Program-made: the position numbers and the translations under genes | The notes under the pieces: generated by a model | Told to the model about the DNA's origin: nothing | The model's database searches: none | What the model saw: only the letters and a program-made list of their open reading frames with translations | Assembly: GCA_039961635.1 (NCBI GenBank) | Contig: JABRWB010000012.1 | Coordinates: forward strand, 22,273 to 86,272 | Reading direction: 5' to 3' | Origin: a bacterium | GTDB lineage: Bacteria; 4484-113; JAGGVC01 | DNA: 64,000 nt | Part shown: positions 1 to 54,483 of the stretch, piece after piece | Layout: every line of letters starts with the position of its first letter | Numbering within the stretch: the first letter of the stretch is position 1

Positions 1-2144
1 TATCGGTAGGCAAGTTCGAGTTTTGAATTTACGAAATTTACCGGAAGAAGGTTGCCTTGAATGCGGCTCGCCAATTCGAGGTCGTTGGCAATATGCTCCT
101 TGTACGCTTCGAGCGCCTCGCTGTGTTCTTTCAGGTTCTCGAAGTTGTATGCGTTCATGAGCGCGCTGGCGAGCTGGCTCGCGACCGTTTCGAGAACCGC
201 GATATCGGATTCCTTGAAGGAATTCGCCGCGCGGTTGGCAACGTCCAGAACTCCCAGAATATGCCTGCCCTTGGTAATCGGGATTGCGATTTCGCTCTGG
301 ATGTTCAGCGCACCGGGAAAGTGGTTCACGAACCGCTCGTCTTTGGAGCAGTCAGGCGCGAATTGGGTCTTTCCGCTTTGGGCGGCGATTCCGATCAAAC
401 CTTCACCGACCGGCACGCGCAGCCCGACATCTATGTAGTCTCCATCTTTTCCGACCGAGCTGTAAAGGTAAAGGCTTCCTATAGCTTCGTCTACGAGAAA
501 AAGAAAAACGTTGTCGTAGCCGAACAACTCGATGAGATTGCGGCCGGCTTCCTTCAAAATCGTGTCGATATGAAGCGACTCCAGAACGCGCTGGGAGAGC
601 TTGTAAATCAGCGCGAACTGCTCGCTCCTGCGCTTTTCAAACTCCAGCAACCTTGCGTTTTGGAGAATCGCCGCAAGCTGGCTGGACAACTGGGTGATGA
701 AGCTGATGGTCGGAGTATCGAACGAATCCGGCTTGTCGCTTTCAAACACAAGCAGGCCGAGCAATTCGTTCTTGTAAATCATGTTTACCACGAGAAGCGA
801 CTGAATCGCTCCGGGGTATGCTTCGGTCACGCCGAAACTTTCAAGGGTGTTGACGTCGAGCTTTCCGACGAACAGTTGCGAAGGCATTCCGCTTTTGAAA
901 GACTGCCAAAGCGGGCTTTTGTGAACGCCCACATCTTCCCCCAGCGGATATCTCGCCGGATTAGGAGGCCGGCATTCGGCCCGGAATGCTCCCAGGTTCT
1001 GCTCGTCGGCAAGCAACAGCGAGAACCTGGTGTAGTGGAAAAGATCCTTCAGCTCCCTGTCCAGCGTGTCCACTATGTCGGAAAGCTTCAAACTTTCATT
1101 AAGCGCCTTGCCGATTTTGACGATCCTGCTGAAAAGCAGATTCCTGGCTATCAAATCGCGTTCGAGCTCGTATCTCTCCGTCACGTCGCGGGCGATGGCG
1201 AGGATGTATACCTGGTCGCCCAGATCCAGCCGCACCGTCCGAAAGTTTGCGATTACGCGTTTGCCGTCCGCGCCCACAAGTTCGAGATCCAGCGAGCGCG
1301 GGCTTTCGCCCGGCTCCATCGGACGGAAAAGCTCCGCCGCGTCCTCGATTTCCTCCGGCGGGAATATGTAAATTATGTTTTTGCCAAGCAAGTCGAACGC
1401 ATTGCAGCCCGTCAATCTTTCGAAGGCCGGATTGCATTCGGTGATGACCAGCGTTTCCGCGTCGATAAGAACGATCGCGTCGCCGGCCTTCGCAACGACC
1501 TGGCTGTATCGCGATTCCGCGTCCAACAGCGCCAGGTTTTGCTCGGTCAGCATTCCCAGAGCCTCCCGGTACTTGGACTCATCCTCCAAACGGACGAGCA
1601 CCTTTCCGCCTCCGGCGGGAAGGAAATCCAGCGTGGCGGTAAAGCTGTACCTTTCCCTGGGAAGCTGCTGGATAAGCGTCAATTTGCACCTTTGCTTGTT
1701 CTGTTTCAGCGATTTGAAAGACTCGATGACCGATTGCCTGCTGGAATCGTCAAACAGGTTCGCCACCAGCAGCGAGCGCGTTGGAATCAGCTCCACATAT
1801 TGCCCGAGATAAGGATGACGCCGCCATTCTTCGTTTACTTCCAGCACGCGCCCCGTTTTGTCGCAAACCGCAATCGCGCCGACCGAATGATTGAAGATAA
1901 ACTCAAGCTCCTGGCGCGATTTCCTCACGGGCGGGATTTGGGTCCGGGCGTTGCTTTTCAGAATATAAAAAAGGACGGCAAAAAGCGCAACCAAATTGGC
2001 CGCGGAAATCGCGATTGGGGTGGGAATCGGGCCGATGCCGGACGGCGCGGCGAAATGCAGTATCGCGTCCAGCACCGTCACGAGCAGAAGGAATCCGGCG
2101 AAAATGGCGGCGATCTGCCTCCAAGATATATTCGCCGTTGACAT
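1..2144 (-). CDS. Membrane-anchored PAS-domain sensor fused to an RsbU/SpoIIE-type PP2C serine phosphatase. The 3' end (phosphatase domain) lies beyond the window start.
   Basis: Hand translation of the minus strand from ATG (complement of 2142-2144) gives MSTANISWRQIAAIFAGFLLLVTVLDAILHFAAPSGIGPIPTPIAISAANLVALFAVLFYILKSNARTQIPPVRKSRQELEFIFNHSVGAIAVCDKTGRVLEVNEEWRRHPYLGQ, i.e. a TM helix followed by PAS-like motifs. The same frame at nt 120..1 reads EALEAYKEHIANDLELASRIQGNLLPVNFVNSKLELAYR, the typical start of SpoIIE/PP2C domains (DLxLAxxIQxxLLP). The track omits this ORF because its stop lies outside the window. The + strand ORF 57..2141 is its antisense shadow. Confidence 0.7.
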   Translation of the reverse strand, partial: MSTANISWRQIAAIFAGFLLLVTVLDAILHFAAPSGIGPIPTPIAISAANLVALFAVLFYILKSNARTQIPPVRKSRQELEFIFNHSVGAIAVCDKTGRVLEVNEEWRRHPYLGQYVELIPTRSLLVANLFDDSSRQSVIESFKSLKQNKQRCKLTLIQQLPRERYSFTATLDFLPAGGGKVLVRLEDESKYREALGMLTEQNLALLDAESRYSQVVAKAGDAIVLIDAETLVITECNPAFERLTGCNAFDLLGKNIIYIFPPEEIEDAAELFRPMEPGESPRSLDLELVGADGKRVIANFRTVRLDLGDQVYILAIARDVTERYELERDLIARNLLFSRIVKIGKALNESLKLSDIVDTLDRELKDLFHYTRFSLLLADEQNLGAFRAECRPPNPARYPLGEDVGVHKSPLWQSFKSGMPSQLFVGKLDVNTLESFGVTEAYPGAIQSLLVVNMIYKNELLGLLVFESDKPDSFDTPTISFITQLSSQLAAILQNARLLEFEKRRSEQFALIYKLSQRVLESLHIDTILKEAGRNLIELFGYDNVFLFLVDEAIGSLYLYSSVGKDGDYIDVGLRVPVGEGLIGIAAQSGKTQFAPDCSKDERFVNHFPGALNIQSEIAIPITKGRHILGVLDVANRAANSFKESDIAVLETVASQLASALMNAYNFENLKEHSEALEAYKEHIANDLELASRIQGNLLPVNFVNSKLELAYR

Positions 2145-4431: not shown

Positions 4432-7400
4432 ATGGGCAGGCTTCATTTTCGTTTTGCATATCATCGAAATTCGTTATTGCCGGCGGTTTTCCTTGCAATC
4501 GGCGCCGTCATTGTTTTTGCCAGTTGCCGTGCAGCCGGGCGGCTGTTCGATGCGTCCAATCCGTCGTCGCAACCTCAAAATCTCGTTCCGCCGGCCATTG
4601 AAAACTCGGACCCCGGCGCGCTCTTGGATGCAATATCGGAGATAAGCGAGTTCGAGGTACCGCAAGACGCCGATCCTCAAACCTTCGATATTTTGCGCGC
4701 AAAGCTCATTGAATTTGTTACATCCGCATCCTCCAGAAAATCGGGACTCCGCGAAGCATCCAGCGTGCCAAAGGCAGGATTCGGCGCGGTATCCGATCTC
4801 ATTTACGATGAAGAATCTGGCACGCTATCCTGGACTTATACGAATTGGGGCGATTACGACGGCAGCGGCGAAGTAAATGTGGCCGATATAACGCCGATAG
4901 CCATGTATTTCGGCTCGAAGGTGGAAGACGGCGCCGGATATCCGGAACTTAAAAGGTGGATCGACGGCGACGGCGATGGCGAAATAGGTGTTAGCGATAT
5001 CGTCCCGATCGCTTTGAATTACCTGGGCGAAGTTTGGGGCTACGCCGTGTTCGCGTCAGAAACCCGCGACGGAGCTTTTTCGGCCAAGCTTCCGGGAAGC
5101 GTTGAAACAACGACGGGGGCGGGCATCCCCAAGCGCTGTTCGTTCGAAGTTCCGGCGGAGGCAGGAAATTTTTTCGTGGTAAGGCCGCTCGACGGATCTG
5201 GTAATTATGGAGAGGCGAGCAACATTGCGCCAAAAGGAATCGAGCCGCGGGTTTTGTCCGTAACACCTACTTCGGGCGACCAGGGAAGCGTGGTAACGTT
5301 CGAGGCGCAGGTCGAAGGAAGCGAACCACTCACGTATTTTTGGGATTTCGGAGGCGCCGCACTGCCGAATAATGCGACCGACGCATCGCCTGAAGTCGTG
5401 CTGACTACATATGGTGATTTCCAGGCCACGCTTACTTTATCGAATGCACTCGGCTCCCATGCTTTCGAATTCCCCCTTTCGGTTGTGCCGGTCGGAACCG
5501 CGCCCGAAATACTTTGGGTGCTTCCCGAAACCGCGGTCGAGGGCGAATTCGTGCCGTTTATGCCGTTCGTTACCGGCTCCGCGCCGCTTTTGGCGGAGTG
5601 GGATTTCGGCGAAGGAGCTTCGCCACGGTACTCGAACGAAGCAGCGCCGCTTGTGATATGGGACGAGCCGGGCGATTACAGCGTGCATCTCAAGGTGTCG
5701 AATTATTTCGGCTCTGACGAGGTTGTCATTGTAATTCACATAATTCGCCAAGGAGTATCGCCGGTAGTTTTCGGCGCATCGCCAATAAAGGGGGCAGAAG
5801 GAGAAACGGTCAAGTTCATACCCTTGATTGGCGGCTCGTATCCGATGGACTTCAACTGGCAGTTCGGCGAGGCCGCAACTCCCTCTACAACAACCGACAG
5901 ATTCCCGGTGGTCACGCTGGGTCATCCGGGCAAGTACAGATGCGTTCTGACCGCGTCGAATTACTTCGGTACCGACGAAACGACTTTCGAATTAACTGTC
6001 ACCGACGGCGACGCGTATGGCAACTGGCCCCAGCCAGGCCGCTGGGCGACTCACCGGAGCAGGGCGGATGTGCCGGTTGCAGTGGACAGCGAGAATCCGC
6101 GGGCTGGGAGGATACTCGGATTGCCGGGCAAGGTGGATTCAAGCCCGATTGTGGACGAGTACGGCGCGGTTTATGTCGTTGTGGCGGACGAGTCCGCAGA
6201 TCCCCCGATTGACAGGTTTTGCGCTGCCAAACGGTCAGGCGATATCGAAGTGCTTTTCGAAGCCGTCGACATAATTGACGATCCTGTGATGGACGGCGAA
6301 GGCAGGATATTCCTGAAAGCGGGCGATGGAACGGAGTATTTCCTATATGCGATAGGCCGCGGCTATGGAAACTTGCTTTGGTCCAAGCCTATTGGCGGGG
6401 CGGCGCTTGGATTGGCTTGCACCAAAGATGGAAAAGTCGTTGCAGGAACTTCGATTCCGAACTCGGAACCTTCCGTAAAGTCCTATTGGAATACGGGAGA
6501 ACTCAGATGGTCGATTTCCGCAAAGTCGGAAGGGCCGGGAAGCATCGCTATTGCACCGGACGAAACCGCGTACATTTTTGGCGAAGATGGAATCAAGGCA
6601 TTTGGCTATGATTCGGGCGTTTCATGGTCAAAGTACTGGTCCTATTATGGGGATGGAGGCATATCTATCGGGTTGGGCGGGGAAGTTCTGCTTGCCGCGT
6701 GGCAAGAAAAACTTGTTGCCTTTGATCGTCTCGGCACGGAATTATGGCTAGGCGGGTTGACCGCATGCAGCGGGCCTCCGGCAGTCGGGATTGACGGCTC
6801 CGTATATTATGGAGTGTATCCCAATTACCTGGATTCAATTTCGCAAGAAGGTCAGCAATTGTGGAGCACGGAGTTCACCAATTTGGGGTGGTACGATGGC
6901 GAGGCCAACGGACCATTGATTTCAGCGCCGGCTATGGATTCAAACGGCACGCTGTATTTTCTTTTCTTCGGCCAGATCGATGACCAGAGTCAGGTAGTTT
7001 CCATATCCTCTACCGGAGAATTGCTTTGGGAGTATCCGGTCGGCTCGGTTCAAGTCCACCACAATCCCGCAATCAGCGCCGACGGCAGGCTTTTCGTACC
7101 CGCGGGCGATCTTTACGTTTTCGGCGGAGAAGTGACCGGTCCGCAGGCTGCGCTCGATGTCTCGGAATCAACTGGACAAGTCCCGTTTACGGTGACGCTC
7201 GATGCGTCGGGTAGCACTGACGAAGACGGCTCGTTGCTTACTTACGAATGGGATGTGGAAGGCGACGGCGTTTGGGATTTCAATTCGGGATACGCGCCGA
7301 AAGTCAGGCATACCTACACGCATCCGGGAAGCTATTCGCCGGTAGTCAAAGTGTCCGACGACGGTGAAAGCGATTATGCTCAAGCATCGGTTACTGCATC

Positions 7401-8469
7401 GCCAAGCATGCACGACAAGGAGTGGCACATAACGGTATTGGATTCCGGTTACAATGGCTACTATCGACCATCGATGATTGTGAGTGAGAACAAACCGGGC
7501 ATCGCTATTTCAAAATATGGCGTACTCTTTTATTTGTCGGCATTGGATCCGTATGGACAATCTTGGAATGCGCCAATCGATCCCGGTTTTTCAAATTTCG
7601 GCTTGGTTTTCACTGCATCGGAGATCCTTGGAAAACCTGCAATGGCATTCAGTTCCGACCTGTTCAACGATTACCTGGCTTATGCAACTGCCGAAGACCA
7701 GTCAGGTTTTGTTTGGAGCCCTCCCGTGTCGGTGGATTATCTTATGTATCATGATCCACTTGGTATTTCGTTGCAGGAAGTAAACGGGAATCCTGCAGCT
7801 GCTTTTTCGCGATTTGCGCGTGGCTTTTGGTTCATCCATGCAAACGACCCGGATGGAATATCTTGGGCAGCACCCGTTCAACTTGAGCCCGGGGGAATGA
7901 ACTACTGGGAATACTCGGTATCGTTGGTTGAAGCAGGTGGCAAACCTTGCGTTTTCTACGTCCATGACAACCAGCTAAAGGCAACCGTGGCTCTGGATGC
8001 CAACGGCGACGAATGGAATTCCTCTGTCACTCTCGATGATTTGGAACTAAACTATAGCGAAAACCGTGTAGTGGCAGCGATAGAAGTATCGGGTTGTCCT
8101 GCTGTTGTTTATTTCAATGGAAGCGGAATTTACTATATGCGCGCTTTGGATCCCGAAGGAACAAGTTGGGGCAATAGGGTATTCATAGATAATTCCAATT
8201 CGAATTTTTCGCCTTCGGCAGGAATTATTGGTGGAGTGCCTGCAATTGCATATGCACAACACTTGAATGTGCCAGGGATGTTCGACGGATGCGCGCTCGC
8301 CATCATTCGCGCCACCGATGCGGACGCTACCAGCTGGGGCGAGCCCGAAATCATCGACAGCCTGGGCGACGTTGGCCATTTCGCCTCCATCGCCGAAAAT
8401 TCCGTCGGGCCTTGCATCGCGTATCAGGATCGCACGAAACAGGCGCTGAAGTTCGCAATTTATTATTGA
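4432..8469 (+). CDS. Giant secreted lipoprotein with an N-terminal dockerin-like module, PQQ/BamB-like beta-propeller repeats, a PKD domain and C-terminal repeated propeller-like blades.
   Basis: ORF 4369..8469. Likely start MGRLHF... at 4432 with SD AAGGGAG. Signal peptide ends ...VIVFASC (lipobox). Dockerin-like pair GDYDGSGEVNVADITPIAMYFG / IDGDGDGEIGVSDIVPIALNYL. PKD-like segment VTLDASGSTDEDGSLLTYEWDVEGDGVWDF. Repeated blade-like segments with conserved W/G pattern in the C-terminal half. Confidence 0.75.
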   Translation: MGRLHFRFAYHRNSLLPAVFLAIGAVIVFASCRAAGRLFDASNPSSQPQNLVPPAIENSDPGALLDAISEISEFEVPQDADPQTFDILRAKLIEFVTSASSRKSGLREASSVPKAGFGAVSDLIYDEESGTLSWTYTNWGDYDGSGEVNVADITPIAMYFGSKVEDGAGYPELKRWIDGDGDGEIGVSDIVPIALNYLGEVWGYAVFASETRDGAFSAKLPGSVETTTGAGIPKRCSFEVPAEAGNFFVVRPLDGSGNYGEASNIAPKGIEPRVLSVTPTSGDQGSVVTFEAQVEGSEPLTYFWDFGGAALPNNATDASPEVVLTTYGDFQATLTLSNALGSHAFEFPLSVVPVGTAPEILWVLPETAVEGEFVPFMPFVTGSAPLLAEWDFGEGASPRYSNEAAPLVIWDEPGDYSVHLKVSNYFGSDEVVIVIHIIRQGVSPVVFGASPIKGAEGETVKFIPLIGGSYPMDFNWQFGEAATPSTTTDRFPVVTLGHPGKYRCVLTASNYFGTDETTFELTVTDGDAYGNWPQPGRWATHRSRADVPVAVDSENPRAGRILGLPGKVDSSPIVDEYGAVYVVVADESADPPIDRFCAAKRSGDIEVLFEAVDIIDDPVMDGEGRIFLKAGDGTEYFLYAIGRGYGNLLWSKPIGGAALGLACTKDGKVVAGTSIPNSEPSVKSYWNTGELRWSISAKSEGPGSIAIAPDETAYIFGEDGIKAFGYDSGVSWSKYWSYYGDGGISIGLGGEVLLAAWQEKLVAFDRLGTELWLGGLTACSGPPAVGIDGSVYYGVYPNYLDSISQEGQQLWSTEFTNLGWYDGEANGPLISAPAMDSNGTLYFLFFGQIDDQSQVVSISSTGELLWEYPVGSVQVHHNPAISADGRLFVPAGDLYVFGGEVTGPQAALDVSESTGQVPFTVTLDASGSTDEDGSLLTYEWDVEGDGVWDFNSGYAPKVRHTYTHPGSYSPVVKVSDDGESDYAQASVTASPSMHDKEWHITVLDSGYNGYYRPSMIVSENKPGIAISKYGVLFYLSALDPYGQSWNAPIDPGFSNFGLVFTASEILGKPAMAFSSDLFNDYLAYATAEDQSGFVWSPPVSVDYLMYHDPLGISLQEVNGNPAAAFSRFARGFWFIHANDPDGISWAAPVQLEPGGMNYWEYSVSLVEAGGKPCVFYVHDNQLKATVALDANGDEWNSSVTLDDLELNYSENRVVAAIEVSGCPAVVYFNGSGIYYMRALDPEGTSWGNRVFIDNSNSNFSPSAGIIGGVPAIAYAQHLNVPGMFDGCALAIIRATDADATSWGEPEIIDSLGDVGHFASIAENSVGPCIAYQDRTKQALKFAIYY

Positions 8470-19456: not shown

Positions 19457-21667
19457 TCATCTGTTCCGGCTGCCGGCAGCCGATTGCGCGCCTTCGGCGG
19501 GCGGAGGGATTTTTTGGCTGGAATCCTGCGGAGGCGCCTGCTGGCCGGACTCCGGGGGCGGAGCCTGCTGGACATTCGATTGATCTCCGGTGTTGACCGG
19601 TGCCTGCTGAGGAGCGGCGGTCGCATCGCCGGTGACGGGGGGTGTGGGCGCGCCGCGCGGAACGACTTTGCCGCTTCCGTCTGGGCCGGGTACAACCGGC
19701 CCCATCTCGCCGCCGCCGTAAGTCGGAGCTGGAGCCCCTGGCGTGACGGGACCCTGGCCGGCGGGCGCCGGGGTTCCGGCCGTGACCGGACCGCCTTCAA
19801 CCGGCGCGCCGGGAGCGGCTTCCCCGGCTCCAGCAGCGGGCGTTGCGGGAGTCTCGGGCGCCGGCGGCTGTTTCAGTTCAGTCTGAAGCTTTGGCAGGCC
19901 GGATGCCGGCGGCGGAAGCTGATTCTCCCCGGCGCTGTCCTGGATGTATCTGAAATTCGGATCGTCTGTAAGTCCGAATCCGAGATCTTCAATGTCTCCC
20001 GGAATCGGCGCACGAGCTTCGAATGTGAGAGTGGCCGCCTGGCCGCTGCCCCGCACAGTCCGTATGATGTCGTCAAGCGAAATAGCGATTGTGACCAATC
20101 CGCTGGATTTGTCCGGCTGGGCATAAAACATCGTTGCATCGCGCCCGCCGTCAAACATAGAGCCGATTTTGACTTTTGTAAGGCTGAAGTTGTTCACGTC
20201 GAACGTTACTCCAAACAGTCCGCGGCGAAAATCGGGGATATTGCGGACATCGAGTGAAACTTCCAACGAATCCCCGGGATCCATTCCGGACTTGGGCTTA
20301 TCATATTTCAATTCCGCCGCCGGTTGAGGTGTTTTCACCTCCAAATCCAGCACCGTGGGCTCCGTCAGAGGAACTCCTTTCGGATTTACGATTATCAGGC
20401 TGACCGTGACGGATTCCGCGGTATCGGGAATGAACCGGACGAACGGCTCCGAAAGCGTCAATGTGACCGTCGGCTTGTCCTTGACTTCAACGGCTTCGGC
20501 TTCCTTCGCGGCAATTTCGTCGGTGATCTGCTTTTGAATGTCGTCAATCAGCTTTTCGCCTGCATCCCGCTTGCCCGGCATCGTGAATTCCCAAGGCGTC
20601 GGCCAGGAGTTTCGCTCCTTCAAACCCGCGCCGGTGTCGTCCGAAGCCGTTTCGGGGGCGACGGAATCGGAGTCATTTGCATCTTCTCCGCTTGCTGCAT
20701 CGGTTTCGGTCGAAGGTGTTTCCTCTGCAGGTGCTATTTCCGCTTCGGCGGAAGCCGCCTCGCCGGATTCCATCCCGTCCGCGGGCCGCTCAAGTTCCGT
20801 TGACCCGGATTCAATTTCGGTATCGGATGCCGTTTCATCCGCAGTATCATCTGCGGAGTCAACCGCTTCGACGGAATTCACCACGCCATCGTCCTGAAGC
20901 GCCAATACCGCATACTTGATTTGGCTGTAGTTGCCGAACAGGCTTGCGAAAATCGTACTGCGTTCGTTCCTCGATGCGACGGTGACCGGCGGCGCAGCAG
21001 GCTCGGTTCTGGTCGGCTCGGCCGGTTTCGGCGCAAGCTGCGGCGGCGGCACCGGCTCGCCGGTTTTGAACTGCTGGTTGCCGCCGCTGGGCGCGGCCGG
21101 TTTCTGGTCCATAACTTTGTCCGGCGATACCGTTGCGGGGATGGTTTTGCCATCCACCGTAGCCGGAGCGCCGCCGGCCGGAACCGGAGCGCCCGTATCG
21201 GTTCCCGCGGGCGCCGCGGGAGTTTCGCTTTCTGGTGCGGACGAAGCCGGCGGGACTGCAAGCGCTTTCAGCCTTTCGCGATCCGATTCGTTGACCGGCA
21301 AAAGCTTGCCGCCGGTCACGTGCCATTCGTAGCGGATGTCTTTTTTGTCGGGGTTGTCCACTATGGCGTAAACGTTGTAAGGCTGATTAACCTCGACCTG
21401 GCCGACCTCGAAGCTGATTTGCATAATCGTGACCGGCCGCTCGGGCGCGCGCTGGCCGGATGTCTCGGACTGCCCAGAGGGATTGCCGTAACTCTGCGAG
21501 TTTCGGTTCGGCGTATTCATGTTTTGGTTGTAACTCGGATTCGTCTGAAGGTTGCTTCCGGACGAGGTGCAGGCCGAACCGTACGCGACCGCGGCCGAAA
21601 ACGCCAGAATCAATGCGGAACCAGCGAACTTCGTCGCATGCTCCCTGAAATAATTCCTGATATGCAT
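19457..21667 (-). CDS. Proline/alanine-rich secreted lipoprotein with a cohesin-like beta-sandwich segment.
   Basis: Probable start MHIRNYFREHATKFAGSALILAFSAAVAYGSAC (signal plus lipobox) at 21667; the track ORF extends to 21793. Long low-complexity P/A/T/E-rich tracts. One globular segment (LEVSLDVRNIPDFRRGLFGVTFDVNNFSLTKVKIGSMFDGG) resembles the cohesin-like segment of the 41194..41844 protein. Confidence 0.6.
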   Translation of the reverse strand: MHIRNYFREHATKFAGSALILAFSAAVAYGSACTSSGSNLQTNPSYNQNMNTPNRNSQSYGNPSGQSETSGQRAPERPVTIMQISFEVGQVEVNQPYNVYAIVDNPDKKDIRYEWHVTGGKLLPVNESDRERLKALAVPPASSAPESETPAAPAGTDTGAPVPAGGAPATVDGKTIPATVSPDKVMDQKPAAPSGGNQQFKTGEPVPPPQLAPKPAEPTRTEPAAPPVTVASRNERSTIFASLFGNYSQIKYAVLALQDDGVVNSVEAVDSADDTADETASDTEIESGSTELERPADGMESGEAASAEAEIAPAEETPSTETDAASGEDANDSDSVAPETASDDTGAGLKERNSWPTPWEFTMPGKRDAGEKLIDDIQKQITDEIAAKEAEAVEVKDKPTVTLTLSEPFVRFIPDTAESVTVSLIIVNPKGVPLTEPTVLDLEVKTPQPAAELKYDKPKSGMDPGDSLEVSLDVRNIPDFRRGLFGVTFDVNNFSLTKVKIGSMFDGGRDATMFYAQPDKSSGLVTIAISLDDIIRTVRGSGQAATLTFEARAPIPGDIEDLGFGLTDDPNFRYIQDSAGENQLPPPASGLPKLQTELKQPPAPETPATPAAGAGEAAPGAPVEGGPVTAGTPAPAGQGPVTPGAPAPTYGGGEMGPVVPGPDGSGKVVPRGAPTPPVTGDATAAPQQAPVNTGDQSNVQQAPPPESGQQAPPQDSSQKIPPPAEGAQSAAGSRNR

Positions 21668-21836
21668 CACTTGCGCCCAGCTCCTTGCCTTGAAATGGCA
21701 AACATTTTCAAAGACGCACCGGCGGGCGCGCTGTTCACGTCCGCGCCGTGCATCCGGATAGATTCTACCCCATAATTTGCCGTCTGGGAACATCCCGCCG
21801 GACCGAAATTCGGCGCGTCCGTCAGCAAGCTTTCAA

Positions 21837-37588: not shown

Positions 37589-40500
37589 TCAAAGAGTTTC
37601 CCCCCAGCGGTAACCGATTTGGCCCGCATCCCGCTCGTCTATCACGCCGTCCGCGTTGCAGTCGAACAGCGGATTGAATCCGGTGTCGGCGCTCGTCAGG
37701 AAAAGCACATCCGAGAAGCCGTCGAGATCACCTTCGCCGACCGTCCCGTCGCCGTTGGTATCGCCCACTAGGTTATACAGCCAAAATGGAAGCGAAATAG
37801 GGATCGATGAATCCCCGTTCGAGTTGAACGCCGTCACTACAACCTGCGCCCTTTGATTCGGAAGGGCGTTGTTTCCCACGCTGAAAGTGACGCCGAACGG
37901 CTCGTCCGAGATTTGGAACAATTGGTCGTACTCATCCTCCCGGCCGAGAGGCGCGTAATCCAGCCTGTATTCCACTCTTTCGACATAGGTAAGGCCGCTG
38001 ACCGAAAACGTCGCACTGTATTGATTCGTGATCTTTCCGAATATCCCGCTCGGGTTCATCGAGGCCTGCTCCACCACCGGCCATTTGAGAACGACGGACC
38101 GGTTGTTGATTTCGACGTCGTCCAGCCATGCGCCAATTCCGTTTGTCTGGTCGTTCCCCCACGCCCACCAGCAAAGCGCGCCCGAATATCCCTTGTAGTT
38201 GTTCAGCGGGAACAGCTCCTGGTACCAATCCGGCCGGTCGTTCGCCCATCCGCCGATCCACATGTAACCTTCCCAAGTGTTGTAAAGGTAAAGCCCGCCG
38301 CCGAAACCGTCCGGCAAATCCGCCTTGAACCAGTACGCAAGCACCGGATCGTCGACCGCGTCGCCCGCAAGATCCACGCATTGACGTCCCGCGGCCGGCG
38401 TAAGCCCGGAGTACCATAATCCTTCGCTGTTGTATTGTCCGAACGGCGCTTCATAGCCGAACGAAGTCGGCGCGGAGTGCGAGTCGGTCGTGACCGGCCG
38501 CCAGTCCGGCGCAATTCCGTCGGAGCCGTATCCCCAGTTATCAGTGCCGCCTTCAAGGTCGTCGAAAATCGGATAGGGGCGGTCGTTTTTCCACTTGAGC
38601 GAGATTGACGCAGGCTCGGACGGCAGTCCGTCGTTGTCCTCCGAAATCACCTTCAGGACGATATTCGGATGGTTGTCGTCGTCAAGTGTATTTCGAGTGT
38701 ATTCCCAGGGAGCATCTTCATCAGTGGAAACCAGCCAGTCGTGCAGATAGAAATACACGCGCTCGACAGCGTTGTCGTCCGATGCGTCCGCGGTGAAGGT
38801 TGCATCGCCTGAAATGACGTCGCCTTCGATGTGGCTTGTGATGGCCGCGGTAGGCGGATCGCTCGGCGCTTCCCGGAGCATGAAATCGTCTATGTTCGCT
38901 CCAAGCCCCGCGTCCGCGGTCGGATGCACCGAGCCGGTGTACCTCAGCTCTATGTATGCGCCGGTGCCTTGCAATTCGAAAGTGCGGTTCCAGAGCGTCC
39001 ATCCCCAGTTTGGCTGCACCCTGTCCACAAGCCGCCAGGTCGCGCCTTCGTCGGTGGTCGCGTAAACCTCGAACGTATCGCGCGATCGGTAGAAAAATTT
39101 CATGTGTATCCGGTTCGTGAATCCGGATATGTCGACGCGCTGGCTGCGCAGCTTGTCCTTGTTAGCATTGTGCCAGGTGTCTGCTCCGCCGTACGGGCGC
39201 ACCCAAGCCTCGTTGCCGGCGCCGAGCGGCGCGGGATCGCCGGGGCTGGTTCGCGTGTCCCATGCGGTGTATTGCCCGCCGGGTTCGCGCGGAGCGTTGA
39301 GGATTTTCCACTTGAATAAACCGCTTTCGAAATCGTCGGAAAGCGTTGTCACCCCGGCGTTGTCCACGGTCACGAAAATCGTGTCGGATGCGGACTGGCC
39401 GTTCCCGTCGAATGCGCGCGCGGTGATTTCAACCGATTTGTTGAACTCGACACGCGTGTTCCATGCGTAGTTGTACGGCGCGGAAGTCAGGTCCGCGGTC
39501 CATTCGCCGTCGATGAAAAGCTCGACTTTTGAAATCGAATCGTCGTCCGCCGCATCTACTGAAATCACTTCTCCGCCGCTTACGGTATCTCCCGGCCCCG
39601 GAGAAGTAATAGCGACCGACGGCGCGGAATCCGGATACAAAAGAATGTCTGCCGTCATCACCGCGCCGGCGGGAGAAATGTTGTTGACCGTGATTCCGGT
39701 GGGCGCGCCGGAGTAGTCGTTGGAATTGGGATAAGTGACCGGCGATAACGAAGTTCCTTCCGTGTAATAATCGCCGGCGTTCGCTCCCCCACCGTTTTCG
39801 ATTTCATCCAGTCCGTCCGCCTCCATAAGCTTGATGTACTTGTGGTCGGTGTACGAGTTGTTGTAACGCGTTCCCCCCCCTTCGTCGACGCGCGCATCTA
39901 TATGCCATATCAGAAGACCGCTGTTTGGATACCCTGCGTCCGAGCCTTCGGCCTGCCTGTTTTCGATCATGAAATATTCGGCCCACGGCGTCACGCCGTC
40001 GAACCATGGCATCGCAAGCACCGCGTCCGGATTTGCAATCACTTTGTCCAGCTGCTCTCCCGGCAGATTCGTGAACGTGATCGTTGGGGAAAGCCAGCCG
40101 AGCATATATTTGCTGAAGCAGCAATGCCCGCCCCAGCCGCCCATCATGTCGAGCCCGCCCACTCCGCCGCGCTCGCCCACCGAATCATCGTAGTCGTAAT
40201 AATCGGGCAGCCCAAGTCCGTGGCCGGTTTCGTGAATGACGGTTCCGGGATCCCACACTTCCGGAAGCGGCGGCTCCTCACCGAAGTAGTACCATCGCTC
40301 CGGCTGCCATGAGTAGCTTCCGAATTCGACGCCGTCCAGCGAAAATCCGCCCATCCACATCGCGAATCCCCACCAGTAAGTCGCCCAATCGCCGTTTGGC
40401 CCGGTCCAGAGAATCGTGAACCCGTCCACCAGGCCGTCCTTGTCGTTGTCGTACTGCGAAAAATCCACGCCCGCGTCGTCCGCCGCGGTCAGCGCTTCGA

Positions 40501-41197
40501 TAATGAGCTCGCGCTGGCGCTCCCCGTCGGTCGGCAATCCTTCGTTTTGATCGGGATGGTAATAGTCGCGTGTCCGGCTGGCCATATGCCAGGAAAAAAC
40601 ATCGCCCGTTATCTGAAGCTGGCCGTAGCTCTGCTCCAAATAATACTGTCGCAGGCCTATGTACGGCGCGCCGGGATCGCCGTCGCCGTAAAGCACGTCG
40701 TCGAACTGCTCTTCGGTGAAATAATGCGGGTAATTGGGGAATTCAATCGGCAGGCAGAACATCTTGACCGTACCGATTGAGGGGAGGACCGCAGTGTCCC
40801 TTGGCATTTCGAATCCGAGAACCAGCAGGTCGCGTTCGTCCACGACGCGGTCGTGATTAAGGTCGTATTCGATGTACGAAAGCTCGCGCGACGTGCTGCG
40901 GCCGATTTCGCTCGCGGATTTGCCGTCGAGCGAGCGGCCGAGATTGGCGAGTATTCCGTCGGCGATTTCGCGAGGACTCAATGCAGCGATTTCGAGCGCG
41001 CCGCGCTTGGGTACTTTTGCTTCCCAATTGCCGAGCCTTTTCGCGTTTTCGAGCGCCTCGGCGTAAGTACCTTCGCGCTTCATCCGCTCGATCATTCCGG
41101 GCTTGGGCGGCTCAAGCGCAAAAGCATGGCATGGCAACAAAACCGGAACAGCGAAAATCGCGGCAACCGGAATAAGAAGGGCAGGGGAGGATTTCAT
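37589..41197 (-). CDS. Secreted M6-family (immune inhibitor A-like) metalloprotease with Ig-like/PPC-like modules and a C-terminal dockerin-like module.
   Basis: Signal peptide MKSSPALLIPVAAIFAVPVLLPCHAFA. M6 zinc site TVIHETGHGLGLPDYYD. The C-terminus VGDTNGDGTVGEGDLDGFSDVLFL...FDCNADGVIDERDAGQIGYRWG is a two-segment dockerin-like Ca-binding repeat. Confidence 0.85.
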   Translation of the reverse strand: MKSSPALLIPVAAIFAVPVLLPCHAFALEPPKPGMIERMKREGTYAEALENAKRLGNWEAKVPKRGALEIAALSPREIADGILANLGRSLDGKSASEIGRSTSRELSYIEYDLNHDRVVDERDLLVLGFEMPRDTAVLPSIGTVKMFCLPIEFPNYPHYFTEEQFDDVLYGDGDPGAPYIGLRQYYLEQSYGQLQITGDVFSWHMASRTRDYYHPDQNEGLPTDGERQRELIIEALTAADDAGVDFSQYDNDKDGLVDGFTILWTGPNGDWATYWWGFAMWMGGFSLDGVEFGSYSWQPERWYYFGEEPPLPEVWDPGTVIHETGHGLGLPDYYDYDDSVGERGGVGGLDMMGGWGGHCCFSKYMLGWLSPTITFTNLPGEQLDKVIANPDAVLAMPWFDGVTPWAEYFMIENRQAEGSDAGYPNSGLLIWHIDARVDEGGGTRYNNSYTDHKYIKLMEADGLDEIENGGGANAGDYYTEGTSLSPVTYPNSNDYSGAPTGITVNNISPAGAVMTADILLYPDSAPSVAITSPGPGDTVSGGEVISVDAADDDSISKVELFIDGEWTADLTSAPYNYAWNTRVEFNKSVEITARAFDGNGQSASDTIFVTVDNAGVTTLSDDFESGLFKWKILNAPREPGGQYTAWDTRTSPGDPAPLGAGNEAWVRPYGGADTWHNANKDKLRSQRVDISGFTNRIHMKFFYRSRDTFEVYATTDEGATWRLVDRVQPNWGWTLWNRTFELQGTGAYIELRYTGSVHPTADAGLGANIDDFMLREAPSDPPTAAITSHIEGDVISGDATFTADASDDNAVERVYFYLHDWLVSTDEDAPWEYTRNTLDDDNHPNIVLKVISEDNDGLPSEPASISLKWKNDRPYPIFDDLEGGTDNWGYGSDGIAPDWRPVTTDSHSAPTSFGYEAPFGQYNSEGLWYSGLTPAAGRQCVDLAGDAVDDPVLAYWFKADLPDGFGGGLYLYNTWEGYMWIGGWANDRPDWYQELFPLNNYKGYSGALCWWAWGNDQTNGIGAWLDDVEINNRSVVLKWPVVEQASMNPSGIFGKITNQYSATFSVSGLTYVERVEYRLDYAPLGREDEYDQLFQISDEPFGVTFSVGNNALPNQRAQVVVTAFNSNGDSSIPISLPFWLYNLVGDTNGDGTVGEGDLDGFSDVLFLTSADTGFNPLFDCNADGVIDERDAGQIGYRWGETL

Positions 41198-41844
41198 GAC
41201 TGCGCCTCCCTCGTCTCGGTGTCGAAGCTAATTCGCCTTCCCGATGAATCGCGCAGCTGCATGAAAGCGGGGTCGGACATGAATCCGAAGCGCCTGCTTG
41301 GATTTTCGTTTGAAATCACGCGGAATCTGACGCGCAGAAGCTCGCTTTCGCCCGGCCGGATTTGCGCACCGCCCGGCAGCGCCGTGAACGAAAACGGAAC
41401 AGCACCTTCAAGATTCAGTCCGGCGACGGACAGCGTTTCATCCGGAAGTCCCGCGCCCCGGGAAGCCTTAATTGGCCGGTACTTTCGGGAATCGAAAACG
41501 ATCCTCGTGCTGCCCTGGAATACCGGCTCGCAGTTTCGCACGCTCAAGACCGCGTCGAATTCGTCGCCGGTTTTGTAATCGGAAGATGCGGGCGTCACAA
41601 GCGAAAGCACCGTTCTTCCTCCGGCATCCGCTGCTAAGCCGGGATTCGATTCGCTGCCGCCGGTTGAATTCGGATGCATCGGGCTTTTGCCCGATTTGCA
41701 TGCGGGAGCGGTCAACAGCGCCAGAAGCGCAAATCCAAAAAGCCAGGCCAGGCGAATCGTGTTTTGCAATCCGGACTCCGCGTATAAATATAGAGGCGGA
41801 GAGCCGCCTCGCGGAGCGGATTGTAGCATCCGGCCCGCGTACAA
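41194..41844 (-). CDS. Cohesin-like lipoprotein translationally coupled to the M6 protease.
   Basis: Signal/lipobox ...LFGFALLALLTAPAC. Beta-sandwich-like segment FDAVLSVRNCEPVFQGSTRIVFDSRKY...LSVAGLNLEGAVPFSFTALPGG. Its stop overlaps the protease start (ATGA, 41194-41197). Start uncertain: ATG 41844 or ATG 41829. Confidence 0.55.
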   Translation of the reverse strand: MYAGRMLQSAPRGGSPPLYLYAESGLQNTIRLAWLFGFALLALLTAPACKSGKSPMHPNSTGGSESNPGLAADAGGRTVLSLVTPASSDYKTGDEFDAVLSVRNCEPVFQGSTRIVFDSRKYRPIKASRGAGLPDETLSVAGLNLEGAVPFSFTALPGGAQIRPGESELLRVRFRVISNENPSRRFGFMSDPAFMQLRDSSGRRISFDTETREAQS

Positions 41845-52052: not shown

Positions 52053-52302
52053 CGGAACCTGGCCTGCGCGCAAGCGCCTAGCCGGACGGGCCGCCCCCTG
52101 GGATTGGGAGAACCGGGAGAACGATGCTGTAAGAGTGCGGGAAAACAGGGCAGGGCGCGGCCGCGGGCCGCTTCGGGATGCAAAGCGCAAAATTCATCAA
52201 GCCGTCCTCCTTTGGATGGATTTCCCCGGTGATGCGGTCAGCCCGCATGCCGTGGATTGCGCATTTTACCCCAGATCGCGGGAAATGCAACAGAAAAAAG
52301 TA

Positions 52303-52377
52303 GCCGAGTTGAGAGTTGCCGAGTTGTGAGTTGCCGATTTGTGAGTTGCCGAGTTGTGAGTTGCCGAGTCGAGGGTT
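52303..52377. repeat. Tandem direct repeat, 5 copies of a 15-nt unit (GCCGAGTTGTGAGTT consensus).
   Basis: GCCGAGTTGAGAGTT / GCCGAGTTGTGAGTT / GCCGATTTGTGAGTT / GCCGAGTTGTGAGTT / GCCGAGTCGAGGGTT, read directly; located in a 630-bp intergenic region. Confidence 0.8.
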
Positions 52378-52800: not shown

Positions 52801-54483
52801 GTGAAAAGGGAGCTTTCGCAACGGTCGTTAATCGGGCCGTTATTTTTTTGTTTGCTTGCTGCGCTCGCGCTGTTAGCTGCGCTTGCCGGATGCGCCGGTT
52901 ATTCTCATCAGAAATACGCACGAGCCGGACACTCGACGCCTCTGTCCGCCGCGCTGGCCGAAATCCGCAACGCCGCGCCTCCCCAAGGCGCAGATCCCGC
53001 GGTTTTCGATTCGCTCAAGCTGCAGCTTGAATCCGAACTAGCCGCGCGCTACGGCGACACCGGACGAATCCCGTCTCGAACCGGAAGCCGGGTTGAAGAT
53101 TTGAGCTACGATACGGGCACGGGATTCATCATTTGGACGTACGTAAACGCGGCGGATTACGACGCGAACGGCGAGACGAGCATCTCGGATGTCACCCCGA
53201 TCGCGCTGAACTGGCAGGCGATTTGCGACGACGGAATAGGCGACGACGCTCACGAATCCTGGATAGACGGCGATCATTCGAACGAAGTGGGGATTTCCGA
53301 CGTGACTCCCATCGCGCTCAATTGGCAGTCCACAGTCGCCGAGTACATAGTCTTTGCTGCCGATGATGAGGCGGGGCCGTTCACCGAAGTCGCCAGAGTG
53401 CCGTTCGGAGATGTTATCGACAGCTGGCCGCCGCACTTCGAGCTGGAATGGCAGCCAGCTTGGGGCGATTATGGCGCGGTTCAGCCCGCGGACGGCGAAG
53501 GCAACACTGGCGAGATGAGCAACGTGGTGGCCATCGGCGGCGCGCTTAAGGATATCGAAATCATGGAGCCGTCCATCACCGCTACGGCGCTTGTGGACAC
53601 CGAAATTCAAAGGACGATCCGCGTAAGAAACAACACGGACGGTCCGATCGACTGGTCGCTCGACCTGACCGGCGCGTTCCTCGCGGCGGATCCCGCATCG
53701 GACACGACAGGCGCGCATTCGATTACCCAGGTGACCGTGACGCTTTCGGCAGTCGGCCTGCTTCCGGGCGTGTACAACGGCGGAATCGCGCTGGATTCGA
53801 TTGCGGGATTCGACAGCTGCCCCGTGTTTTTCACCGTCAACGAATTCGGCGCGGTCGTCAGCATTTTGGAGGATTCGATTTCCGCGACCGCGCCGGAGGA
53901 CGGCTCGGACTCCGAGGTATTCACCCTAAGGAACGACGGAAATATCGACCTTGACTGGGAGGCGTTCGCGGACGATCCGTGGATTACCTTCGATCCCTCA
54001 TCCGGCACTCTGGGCGCCGGGCTTGAAGTTCAGATTACCGCCGATTTCTCGGCCGCGGGAATGCAGGAAGGCGAATACGATTCGACGATCACGGTCGAGG
54101 AATCCGGCAATCCGGCGAACGCGGACTCTTGCGAGGCGCAATTTACGGTGACCACAGGCGGAGTTCCGGTTCTCGACCGCCTGACCGTGGACGGCGCGAC
54201 CGGCGGTTCGGGGACGCAGGCCGACCCGTGGGTGTTCCCAGTGGGCACGACCGCAGTCCAGTTCCACGCGTGGGACACCGACGACAACGAAATCACGGAG
54301 CATCCTTCGATGCTGTTCGATTTCGGAGCGGGCGTTTCGCCCAGCCCGGCCACCGGATGGAGCGTGTCGACAGCCGGAAACTTGATATGGGGCGAATTCG
54401 ATTCGTTAATCGAAGTAACCGGTCAGTACGACGGGTGGCCCGATCCTGCGATGAGTTATTGGATATACAAGGCTCCGTTTTAA
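52801..54483 (+). CDS. Secreted lipoprotein with an N-terminal dockerin-like module (paralogous to the N-terminus of the 4432..8469 protein) and Ig-like domains.
   Basis: Probable GTG start 52801 (SD GGAGAAAGG), giving VKRELSQRSLIGPLFFCLLAALALLAALAGC (lipobox). Dockerin-like ADYDANGETSISDVTPIALNWQ / IDGDHSNEVGISDVTPIALNWQ. N-terminal region PQGADPAVFDSLKLQLESELAARYGDTG parallels PQDADPQTFDILRAKLIEFVTS of the 4432 protein. The track start 52648 is probably an over-extension. Confidence 0.65.
   Translation: MKRELSQRSLIGPLFFCLLAALALLAALAGCAGYSHQKYARAGHSTPLSAALAEIRNAAPPQGADPAVFDSLKLQLESELAARYGDTGRIPSRTGSRVEDLSYDTGTGFIIWTYVNAADYDANGETSISDVTPIALNWQAICDDGIGDDAHESWIDGDHSNEVGISDVTPIALNWQSTVAEYIVFAADDEAGPFTEVARVPFGDVIDSWPPHFELEWQPAWGDYGAVQPADGEGNTGEMSNVVAIGGALKDIEIMEPSITATALVDTEIQRTIRVRNNTDGPIDWSLDLTGAFLAADPASDTTGAHSITQVTVTLSAVGLLPGVYNGGIALDSIAGFDSCPVFFTVNEFGAVVSILEDSISATAPEDGSDSEVFTLRNDGNIDLDWEAFADDPWITFDPSSGTLGAGLEVQITADFSAAGMQEGEYDSTITVEESGNPANADSCEAQFTVTTGGVPVLDRLTVDGATGGSGTQADPWVFPVGTTAVQFHAWDTDDNEITEHPSMLFDFGAGVSPSPATGWSVSTAGNLIWGEFDSLIEVTGQYDGWPDPAMSYWIYKAPF

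Follow-up and report, generated by a model that had tools for sequence, protein, structure and literature searches.

Type I cellulosomal dockerins (Pfam PF00404; PDB chains 1ohz_B, 2ccl_B, 4fl4_A and 2y3n_B) consist of a duplicated segment of ~22 residues, in which a 12-residue calcium loop, immediately preceded by Gly and ending in Asp, is followed by a helix; a linker helix joins the repeats, and internally the whole is almost two-fold symmetric. Among the dockerin features given in PMC3821032 are the Gly preceding D1 and an Asp at loop position 12; according to the same paper, the N and C termini are in contact in solved structures (the 'clasp'). These domains are free-standing and occupy the C-terminus of secreted enzymes. 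In the XDoc dyads of types II/III (2b59_B, 4u3s_B, 4wi0_B), the dockerin is coupled to a supporting Ig-like β-sandwich, a separate domain that precedes it. The glycoside hydrolase complexes of Clostridium perfringens (2ozn; cohesin 2vo8_A) use cohesin and dockerin outside cellulose degradation, where the pair joins extracellular proteins.

Within a window of 64,000 nucleotides, two lipoproteins, protein A (4432..8469, forward strand; 1345 aa) and protein B (52801..54483, forward strand; 560 aa), share a real membrane-proximal module of ~210 residues, comprising a helical hairpin and an FN3 domain with a dockerin inserted in one loop. In contrast to type I dockerins, this dockerin sits within the FN3 B–C loop, close to the lipoprotein N-terminus, and in contrast to the XDoc dyads it interrupts the sandwich, with strands A–B before it and C–G after it. 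The host differs as well, being an uncultured lineage and probably diderm, since the window encodes a TonB-dependent receptor.

The shared module of proteins A and B

Proteins A and B are homologous far beyond chance, since BLASTP aligns A 67-337 with B 51-316 at 35% identity over 281 aa (E 2e-33). As the first-pass annotation of this DNA had proposed, both N-termini fit a PROSITE PS51257-type lipobox pattern, with ...AIGAVIVFASC in A (signal peptide and lipobox VFASC, Cys32; 4432..4527) and ...ALALLAALAGC in B (LAGC, Cys31; 52801..52893), and A would be processed at Cys32 by the lipoprotein pathway. The NCBI counterpart of A, MEP0813427.1 ('PKD domain-containing protein [bacterium]'; by identity to P0016/P0160), has its start called 15 aa downstream of the ORF start used here, and B starts with GTG, with GGAG 7 nt upstream. 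The lipobox Cys is followed by a disordered tether of ~25 aa, a two-helix hairpin, a linker of ~15 aa and the FN3 β-sandwich, and the module is predicted by AF2 as one compact unit (pTM 0.78). The hairpin, which carries P-x-G-[AV]-D…F..LK..L in the family, spans aa 62-102 of A (4615..4737) and, by alignment to A, aa 48-85 of B (52942..53055); in A it shows the conserved turn P-x-[DG]-A-D-P plus F..L...L, modelled as helices H2-14 and H23-43 with pLDDT 88-97. The helix segment previously noticed in both proteins is indeed shared, reading PQDADPQTFDILRAKLIEFV in A and PQGADPAVFDSLKLQLESEL in B.

The FN3 domain was recognized by a profile of 39 sequences from which the dockerin had been cut out. 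This spliced profile matches the FN3 domains of titin (E 3.4e-12) and fibronectin (E 3.4e-5) in alignments that cross the splice, which places the dockerin inside the FN3 fold, and the invariant W and Y of the family coincide with the W of FN3 strand B and the Y of strand C. Single spliced sequences did not reach the Pfam fn3 threshold. Specifically, strands A and B comprise aa 118-138 of A (GAVSDLIYDEESGTLSWTYTN; 4783..4845; model strands E65-67 and E72-76), where W135 falls in strand B in the titin and fibronectin alignments, and by alignment aa 96-116 of B (53086..53148). Strands C to G comprise aa 198-269 of A (…WGYAVFAS…FFVVRPLDGSGNYGEASN…; 5023..5238) and, again by alignment, aa 176-246 of B (53326..53538). 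Compared with ordinary FN3 domains (Pfam PF00041), a folded domain of 60 residues here replaces the B–C loop, and the touching dockerin termini make insertion into a loop geometrically allowed. The earlier anatomy of a helix and a dockerin followed at once by divergence was therefore incorrect: the two β-strands N-terminal to the first calcium loop form the N-terminal part of the FN3 domain, and the module continues for ~70 residues beyond the second repeat, to A ~269 and B ~246, as the C-terminal half of the same domain.

The insert occupies aa 139-197 of A (4846..5022) and aa 117-175 of B (53149..53325; family dockerin HMM E 5e-30). As previously described, both proteins hold a double calcium loop with SD[IV]TPIA repeats, and within the window the SD.TP.A motif occurs in the A and B ORFs only. 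In A, the two F-hand loops read DYDGSGEVNVAD and DGDGDGEIGVSD; an I[TV]PIA helix comes after each loop, and a linker helix connects the two repeats. The AF2 model contains three helices, 91-99, 112-118 and 128-136. Across the family, G-D-Y-D-x-x-G-x-V-x-x-x-D-I-T-P-I-A is found twice, and the helix motif D-I-T-P-I-A-x-N-[YF] differs from the classical dockerin motifs. Unlike type I dockerins, both inserts stay below the Pfam Dockerin_1 threshold, A with 14.9 bits (cut-off 22.9; E 0.031) and B without a match, whereas the close relative P0014 passes at 43.6 bits.

A profile of 45 dockerin segments searched against PDB retrieved solved dockerins first, with 4fl4_A at E 1.8e-6, followed by 2y3n_B, 4wi0_B, 4u3s_B, CelD, 2b59_B, 2ccl_B and 1ohz_B, so that type I and XDoc chains are both among the best matches. 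The matches cover both repeats, and EF-hand proteins follow the dockerins within roughly a factor of ten in E-value. Calmodulin-like EF-hand pairs likewise have two calcium loops with D-x-D-x-[DNS]-G spacing, and single sequences match them in PDB at E ~1e-3. In contrast to EF-hand pairs, loop 1 is preceded in the model by a β-strand instead of an entering helix, position 12 is an invariant Asp in both loops of all members, and the Gly (G0) before D1 is invariant or near-invariant. These features agree with the earlier designation of the repeats as dockerin-type rather than generic EF-hands. In an alignment of 161 members, the flanks are conserved as well as the D-x-D-x-D-G loops, including W75, Y77, N79 and G81 on the N-terminal side of loop 1 and Y145 on the C-terminal side of loop 2, and T-P-I-A after both loops is nearly invariant lineage-wide.

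Passenger domains and distribution of the module

As the first-pass annotation had stated, the passengers of A and B differ. Protein A continues with three PKD/Ig-like repeats (aa ~276-530, 5257..6021; four PKD/PKD_4 stretches with Ig_3/I-set matches), a PQQ_2/BamB-like β-propeller region (aa 530-910, 6019..7161; Pfam PQQ_2 E 9.8e-10, 38.9 bits, above cut-off) and a PKD domain (aa 911-988, 7162..7395; Pfam PKD_4 E 3e-26). Its C-terminal repeats of ~50 aa (G.PA.A…Y..A.D..G..W..P; 7396..8466) had no match in Pfam, resemble repeats in another lipoprotein (L001:11370-13721) and probably form a further propeller. Protein B carries a BACON_2/HYDIN-type Ig-like domain (aa 355-433, 53863..54099; Pfam BACON_2 E 6.6e-12).

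Beyond this genome, the module is matched by 2,331 cluster representatives (50% identity clusters), 791 of them at E<=1e-30, and the MAGs that bear it are labelled "Planctomycetales"/UBP7. The same base appears on thousands of predicted lipoproteins of one uncultured lineage, with at least 18, 14, 13 and 11 distinct copies in single MAGs. It lies at about residues 10-260 of the matched proteins, almost always N-terminal behind a lipobox; a lipobox-like Cys stands ~21 aa upstream in 97 of 105 genomic copies (the other eight are cut by contig ends), and positions +2/+3 show a strong preference for Gly-Gly. Of 146 representatives, 10 carry a second copy close to the C-terminus. The heads are diverse, mostly PKD arrays, Ig/BACON domains and β-propellers with a small number of enzymes, and in contrast to the cargo of type I dockerins they rarely include carbohydrate-active enzymes (1 GH5 in 64).

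A small cohesin-like family

The first-pass annotation had also placed cohesin-like lipoproteins in this genome. Two lipoproteins of the window belong to a small family whose assignment as cohesin-like is marginal (best E 0.0015); no Pfam Cohesin match appeared in anything searched. The first candidate partner (19457..21793, reverse strand; probable start 21667, lipobox YGSAC) has long Pro/Ala/Thr/Glu-rich linkers and a cohesin-like domain at nt 19868-20356, whose best PDB match is cohesin 3ul4_A (E 0.045) and whose single-sequence AF2 model is poor. The second, a small lipoprotein-like protein (41194..41844, reverse strand), bears such a domain at nt 41221-41613 (E 3.8e-6 against the cohesin-like profile). 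Searched against PDB, the family profile gave only four matches, the top three being cohesins (4ums_A 0.0015, 4uyp_A 0.019, 3ul4_A 0.094), and a profile of 9 sequences brought no better E than the first of these; cohesins ranked likewise in other PDB searches with cohesin-like domains, and public collections added no further members. Compared with the C. perfringens pairs, which involve few secreted Gram-positive enzymes, the module here recurs on dozens of lipoproteins in each genome, and dockerin and cohesin candidates alike appear to be lipid-anchored.

The stop codon of the second candidate overlaps the start of an M6-family peptidase gene (37589..41197, reverse strand; Peptidase_M6 and Big_7 matches) as ATGA, and the two genes are apparently translationally coupled. 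This peptidase ends in a classical dockerin-like pair (37592..37771, reverse strand; Pfam Dockerin_1 E 0.007, sub-threshold; family dockerin HMM E 0.003). Elsewhere, a cohesin-like lipoprotein lies 2 kb from a module gene (L020). At four loci in three MAGs (L005, L025, L058, L079), a cohesin-like domain stands where the hairpin would be, immediately before the FN3-dockerin, and in P0047 one lies between two dockerin-FN3 units.

Possible roles of the module

A plug-and-socket system of envelope assembly is plausible from these sequences. Protein A would be a lipid-anchored multi-domain envelope protein, of which the first ~270 residues form the conserved base and the rest an exchangeable head. 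The dockerin, with its two predicted calcium-binding F-hand loops and three helices, would fold upon Ca2+ binding and plug the membrane-proximal end into cohesin-like domains of the same genome, mostly borne by lipoproteins, so that many different heads may be gathered, possibly surface-exposed, on a common envelope scaffold. For this plug-and-socket assembly, we consider the chances evenly balanced. An already lipid-anchored protein needs no dockerin for attachment, and the near-invariant T-P-I-A could equally reflect intramolecular packing on FN3 or the hairpin instead of a binding face. Such packing constraints, together with the compact prediction of the module, would also suit an insert that merely rigidifies a membrane-proximal stalk distancing the heads and has no protein partner. 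Orphan dockerins are common, and many non-cellulosomal dockerin-like modules reportedly lack a known partner. Given the marginal cohesin evidence, the cohesin-like proteins might then be unrelated β-sandwich lipoproteins or serve only classical C-terminal dockerins, such as that of the M6 peptidase, a dockerin that departs from the module in its helix motif and has a cohesin-like gene of its own next to it. We regard this stalk function as unlikely but deserving real weight, since the repeated fusion of cohesin-like domain and FN3-dockerin is typical of interacting partners, the two-fold repeat symmetry is a hallmark of cohesin-binding dockerins, and a plain spacer does not need a conserved 60-residue calcium module in a loop.

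The ligand could instead be an envelope polysaccharide, peptidoglycan, an S-layer or an outer-membrane protein, by which the lipoproteins are fixed to another envelope layer. The membrane-proximal position and the probably diderm host agree with this, and a conserved face near-identical in dozens of paralogues suits one invariant ligand; but to our knowledge all dockerins whose partners have been identified bind cohesins, and the presence of cohesin-like domains, sometimes fused to the module, makes a non-cohesin ligand quite improbable. We consider it very improbable that the base is read by machinery for lipoprotein transport or surface exposure and sets destination rather than assembly. Its strictly N-terminal place at a fixed distance from the lipidated Cys, the many unrelated heads and the Gly-Gly bias would fit such a signal, whereas the sorting signals we know of are short peptides beside the Cys rather than 210-residue folded units, and neither the C-terminal second copies nor the variants lacking the hairpin are accounted for. 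That A and B merely share D-x-D-x-D-G calcium loops, as the calmodulin matches of single sequences might suggest, has a vanishingly small probability; it is refuted by their pairwise E-value, by the flanks and non-loop regions conserved across the 161 sequences, and by the single architecture found in all 2,331 homologous clusters.

The shared N-terminal module of two lipoproteins

Two lipoprotein genes of the window, those of protein A (4432..8469, plus strand, 1345 aa) and protein B (52801..54483, plus strand, 560 aa), had been proposed in the first-pass annotation to share an N-terminal dockerin-like module and to differ in their passenger domains. Both ORFs are present as claimed, and BLASTP aligns residues 67–337 of A with residues 51–316 of B at 35% identity (E = 2e-33); chance similarity of the two is excluded. 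The motif SD[IV]TPIA occurs twice in A, twice in B and nowhere else within the window. The signal peptides terminate in a lipobox at Cys32 of A and Cys31 of B, as defined by the PROSITE PS51257-type pattern [LIVMFWSTAG](2)-[LIVMFYSTAGCQ]-[AGS]-C without a charged residue at the 6 preceding positions, and lipidation and cleavage by Lgt/LspA are predicted from this pattern. As described earlier, the passengers assigned by Pfam are different: A carries three PKD/Ig-like repeats with a PQQ_2/BamB-like propeller (E = 9.8e-10) and PKD (E = 3e-26), while B carries BACON_2/HYDIN-type Ig domains. The C-terminus of A (7396..8466, plus strand) consists of about 360 aa of roughly 50-aa units (G.PA.A..…Y..A.D..G..W..P), which no Pfam model matches. 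An unrelated lipoprotein of 783 aa, adjoining a member of the module family (L001:11370-13721), also ends in units of this type.

The architecture of the module was derived from an alignment-based AlphaFold model covering residues 60–275 of A (mean pLDDT 83.9, pTM 0.78). In module numbering, two helices (2–14 and 23–43) and a low-confidence linker are followed by a β-hairpin (strands 65–67 and 72–76), by three helices, of which the first follows Ca loop 1 (91–99), the second separates the loops (112–118) and the third follows Ca loop 2 (128–136), and by later strands at 144–150, 176–180 and 188–194. Since the strands flank the three Ca-loop helices, we deleted the dockerin-like residues in silico, so that ...LSWTYTN runs directly into LGEVWGYAVF..., and compared the resulting 39-member family profile with PDB sequences. 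The top matches are FN3 arrays of titin (E = 3.4e-12) and FN3 domains of fibronectin (E = 3.4e-5), whose alignments cross the splice point and place the family-invariant Trp and Tyr on the FN3 strand-B Trp and strand-C Tyr, respectively. The module shows both the FN3 sequence signature (strand-B Trp, strand-C Tyr and F-G motif) and the seven-strand β-sandwich fold. Single spliced sequences stay below the threshold of Pfam fn3 (PF00041; best E = 0.15), and single-sequence searches found no Pfam or NCBIfam model for the module. A Foldseek search of the module against PDB returned only low-TM Hsp90 matches, which were dismissed as noise. From the model layout and the spliced-profile matches together, we conclude that the module is a helical hairpin plus an FN3 domain in which a 60-residue Ca-loop insert takes the place of the B-C loop.

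The insert was judged against the definition of a dockerin as a tandem of segments about 22 residues long, both with a 12-residue Ca loop (D-x-[DN]-x-[DNS]-G-x-[IV]-x-x-x-D) and a subsequent helix, that is, an F-hand. In A the repeats read DYDGSGEVNVAD followed by ITPIAMYF and DGDGDGEIGVSD followed by IVPIALNY, and B has the equivalent, so that both contain tandem F-hands. Both loops have an invariant D1 and D12 across 45–161 sequences, the Gly directly before D1 is at least 90% conserved in the family, and in the model of the A module a strand, not an entering helix, precedes loop 1. A dockerin fold has three helices, of which helices 1 and 3 are antiparallel; the model places three helices in the insert. 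Dockerins have a Gly-0 before the first Asp, and their N and C termini are in contact (PMC3821032). Contacting termini make insertion into a single loop geometrically easy, and those of the insert should be spatially adjacent because it sits in one FN3 loop.

Against Pfam Dockerin_1 (PF00404), the A insert scores 14.9 bits (E = 0.031; cut-off 22.9) and the B insert gives no match, whereas the close relative P0014 reaches 43.6 bits and 3 of 64 members overall exceed the cut-off. Single-sequence phmmer against PDB returned calmodulins at about 1e-3. With a profile of 45 insert segments, solved dockerins rank first (4fl4_A, E = 1.8e-6), followed by 2y3n_B, 4wi0_B, 4u3s_B, CelD, 2b59_B, 2ccl_B and 1ohz_B, with alignments that cover both repeats; calmodulins and other EF-hand proteins are about tenfold weaker. 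On the strength of these family-profile matches, of P0014 and of the dockerin-specific details, we regard the insert as a probable, divergent dockerin, although A and B themselves fall below the Pfam threshold.

Size, distribution and cargo of the module family

A word-indexed search retrieved only 13 relatives, all with a lipobox and several from one NCBI MAG, whereas an exhaustive profile search yielded 2,331 cluster representatives, 791 of them with E ≤ 1e-30. Nearly all representatives (protein lengths 250–1434 aa) carry the module at about residues 10–260. The GTDB species representatives contain 205 module-encoding stretches, 80 of which were kept; these 80 loci come from a handful of MAGs labelled by record title as Planctomycetales/Planctomycetia bacterium or 'bacterium', two being named UBP7, and include three CPR copies. 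They encode 105 distinct module ORFs. In 97 of these a lipobox-like Cys precedes the module by about 21 residues, and the remaining 8 are cut by contig ends. A strict PROSITE-type lipobox is present in 123 of 161 family sequences, and most of the others have Thr at −1 or are truncated. Among the representatives P0014-P0159, about 20 members have this Thr ('LSTCGG', 'LITCGG'), which lies outside the PS51257 pattern, and positions +2/+3 after the lipobox Cys show a strong Gly-Gly bias.

Single MAGs carry at least 18, 14, 13 and 11 distinct copies. The passengers of 64 representatives include PKD (41), Ig-like domains, several propeller families, CarboxypepD_reg and one GH5, and a second dockerin-FN3 unit lies near the C-terminus in 10 of 146 representatives. 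Existing labels of module proteins read only 'PKD domain-containing' or 'hypothetical'; the representative P0016, annotated as 'PKD domain-containing protein [bacterium]', is protein A itself. Clustering of the neighbours of module genes for a conserved adjacent partner gave mostly antisense shadow ORFs. The CPR copies, located in the complete 0.6-Mb Kazan genome (CP011216.1), in METB01 and in a 'Saccharibacteria' assembly (loci L027, L048 and L029, respectively), combine a lipobox, FN3-dockerin and PKD with a divergent hairpin region, and could reflect horizontal transfer or mis-binning.

Cohesin-like candidate partners

The window contains two cohesin-like candidates. The larger is a lipoprotein encoded by a 778-aa ORF (19457..21793, minus strand, probable start 21667), which comprises, from its N-terminus, an Ig-like domain, a low-complexity stretch of about 300 aa rich in Pro, Ala, Thr and Glu, the cohesin-like β domain (nt 19868-20356) and finally a Pro-rich tail. 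The smaller is a small lipoprotein (41194..41844, minus strand) with its domain at nt 41221-41613. Neither domain matches Pfam Cohesin (PF00963). When the 19868-20356 domain alone was compared with the whole PDB, cohesin 3ul4_A ranked first (E = 0.045), with a collinear alignment of 108 residues, and cohesin 4uyp_A ranked third. Gathering family members, the smaller window gene among them, with the domain as query on the fetched loci and then with successive profiles gave a 6-sequence profile for which 4ums_A (E = 0.0015), 4uyp_A (0.019) and 3ul4_A (0.094) are the first three of only four PDB matches, and a 9-sequence profile with E values of 0.013 and 0.021. Cohesins have a nine-strand jelly-roll fold; a structure model of the candidate built from a single sequence was poor.

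Further members are a 275-aa lipoprotein whose gene lies 2 kb away from that of a module protein (locus L020) and a partial copy (L047). In the lipoproteins of four loci (L005, L025, L058 and L079), the cohesin-like domain replaces the hairpin between the lipobox and FN3-dockerin, and in P0047 it lies between two dockerin-FN3 units; these variants would be scaffoldin-like, carrying both a putative plug and a putative socket. Searches of public protein collections and a metagenome scan gave at most one fragment of the cohesin-like family, and the only homologue of the 19457..21793 protein found in public collections is the shorter lipoprotein of L020. The middle region of P0014 resembles a cohesin by eye, but this is not supported: it has no PDB match, shows no similarity to the window candidate and reaches E = 0.65 against the cohesin-like profile.

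The smaller window gene and the gene of an M6-family (immune inhibitor A-like) peptidase (37589..41197, minus strand) share an ATGA, which holds the stop of the former and the start of the latter. The peptidase contains Big_7 domains, and its last 60 residues form a classical dockerin-like pair (nt 37592-37771, minus strand). The two genes look like a putative cognate socket/plug operon, apart from the N-terminal FN3-nested type. The candidate cohesin-dockerin link is contextual, hinted at by the FN3-dockerin fusions and the ATGA-coupled peptidase gene.

Possible role of the module and relation to known systems

The first-pass annotation suggested modular surface display, and the best supported reading, to which we give about an even chance, is that the module serves as a docking base for cohesin-like lipoproteins. 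Specifically, the host FN3 domain would hold a Ca-loaded dockerin rigid near the membrane, the base dockerin would bind cohesin-like domains on other lipoproteins, and a common scaffold would in this way gather many different heads. That the two domain types are functionally linked is supported by their repeated fusion and by the gene pair in which a cohesin-like gene is coupled to that of the dockerin-bearing peptidase. The module could instead be a structural, Ca-stabilised stalk without any partner, an alternative that we regard as unlikely; it is quite unlikely that the base binds a non-cohesin envelope ligand.

A TonB-dependent receptor in the window suggests a diderm envelope, and the compartment of A/B-type lipoproteins is therefore uncertain. 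That the base acts as a sorting determinant for lipoprotein transport is very unlikely. An extension of the docking reading, which we consider unlikely as a whole, is a lipoprotein cohesin-dockerin network in an uncultured lineage that is probably diderm. In each cell, dozens of ectodomains would stand interchangeably on the FN3-nested dockerin base and plug into cohesin-like lipoproteins, with dual-domain lipoproteins chaining them into a membrane-proximal scaffold or lattice. If so, a cellulosome-like assembly principle would be reused as a general envelope architecture, not for polysaccharide degradation.

The components, namely dockerin, FN3, lipobox and possibly cohesin, are already known. 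In the literature searched, we found no precedent for their arrangement and nothing specific on UBP7 or lipoprotein dockerins. Here the dockerin is nested in an FN3 loop; it lies at the N-terminal, lipid-anchored end, whereas classical dockerins occupy the C-terminus of secreted enzymes; its cargo is nearly devoid of carbohydrate-active enzymes; and expansion in an uncultured lineage has led to dozens of paralogues in each genome. The nearest analogues are XDoc dyads, in which a sandwich adjoins the dockerin instead of being interrupted by it, and the few known non-cellulosomal cohesin-dockerin pairs.

To our knowledge, dockerin-like modules outside cellulosomes are widespread and almost none has a known role. 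The module family makes this role testable. The data set is unusually large and uniform, with over 2,300 clusters and a fixed architecture, and the genomes concerned also encode a family of candidate partners, in some cases as fusions with the module, so that partner prediction by co-evolution, complex modelling and Ca/EDTA binding assays are feasible. A base-module model would also annotate a large share of the lineage's envelope proteome, and the nested FN3-dockerin, as a compact natural domain insertion, is a possible display scaffold.

Additionally, several features of the window lie outside the module proteins. Within a non-coding gap of about 790 bp upstream of the B gene there is a 15-bp tandem repeat (52299..52369; AGTTGCCGAGTTGTG, 4.7 copies, 92% match), and immediately downstream of B lies the gene of a 1110-aa lipoprotein (54551..57883, plus strand; lipobox MYAC) in which four PKD domains and PPC-like domains alternate and the shared base module is absent. 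At the window edge, a 694-aa ORF (57..2141, plus strand) has an Arg/Lys/Phe-rich, protein-unlike translation with no Pfam match, and is probably the antisense shadow of a minus-strand gene extending past that edge.
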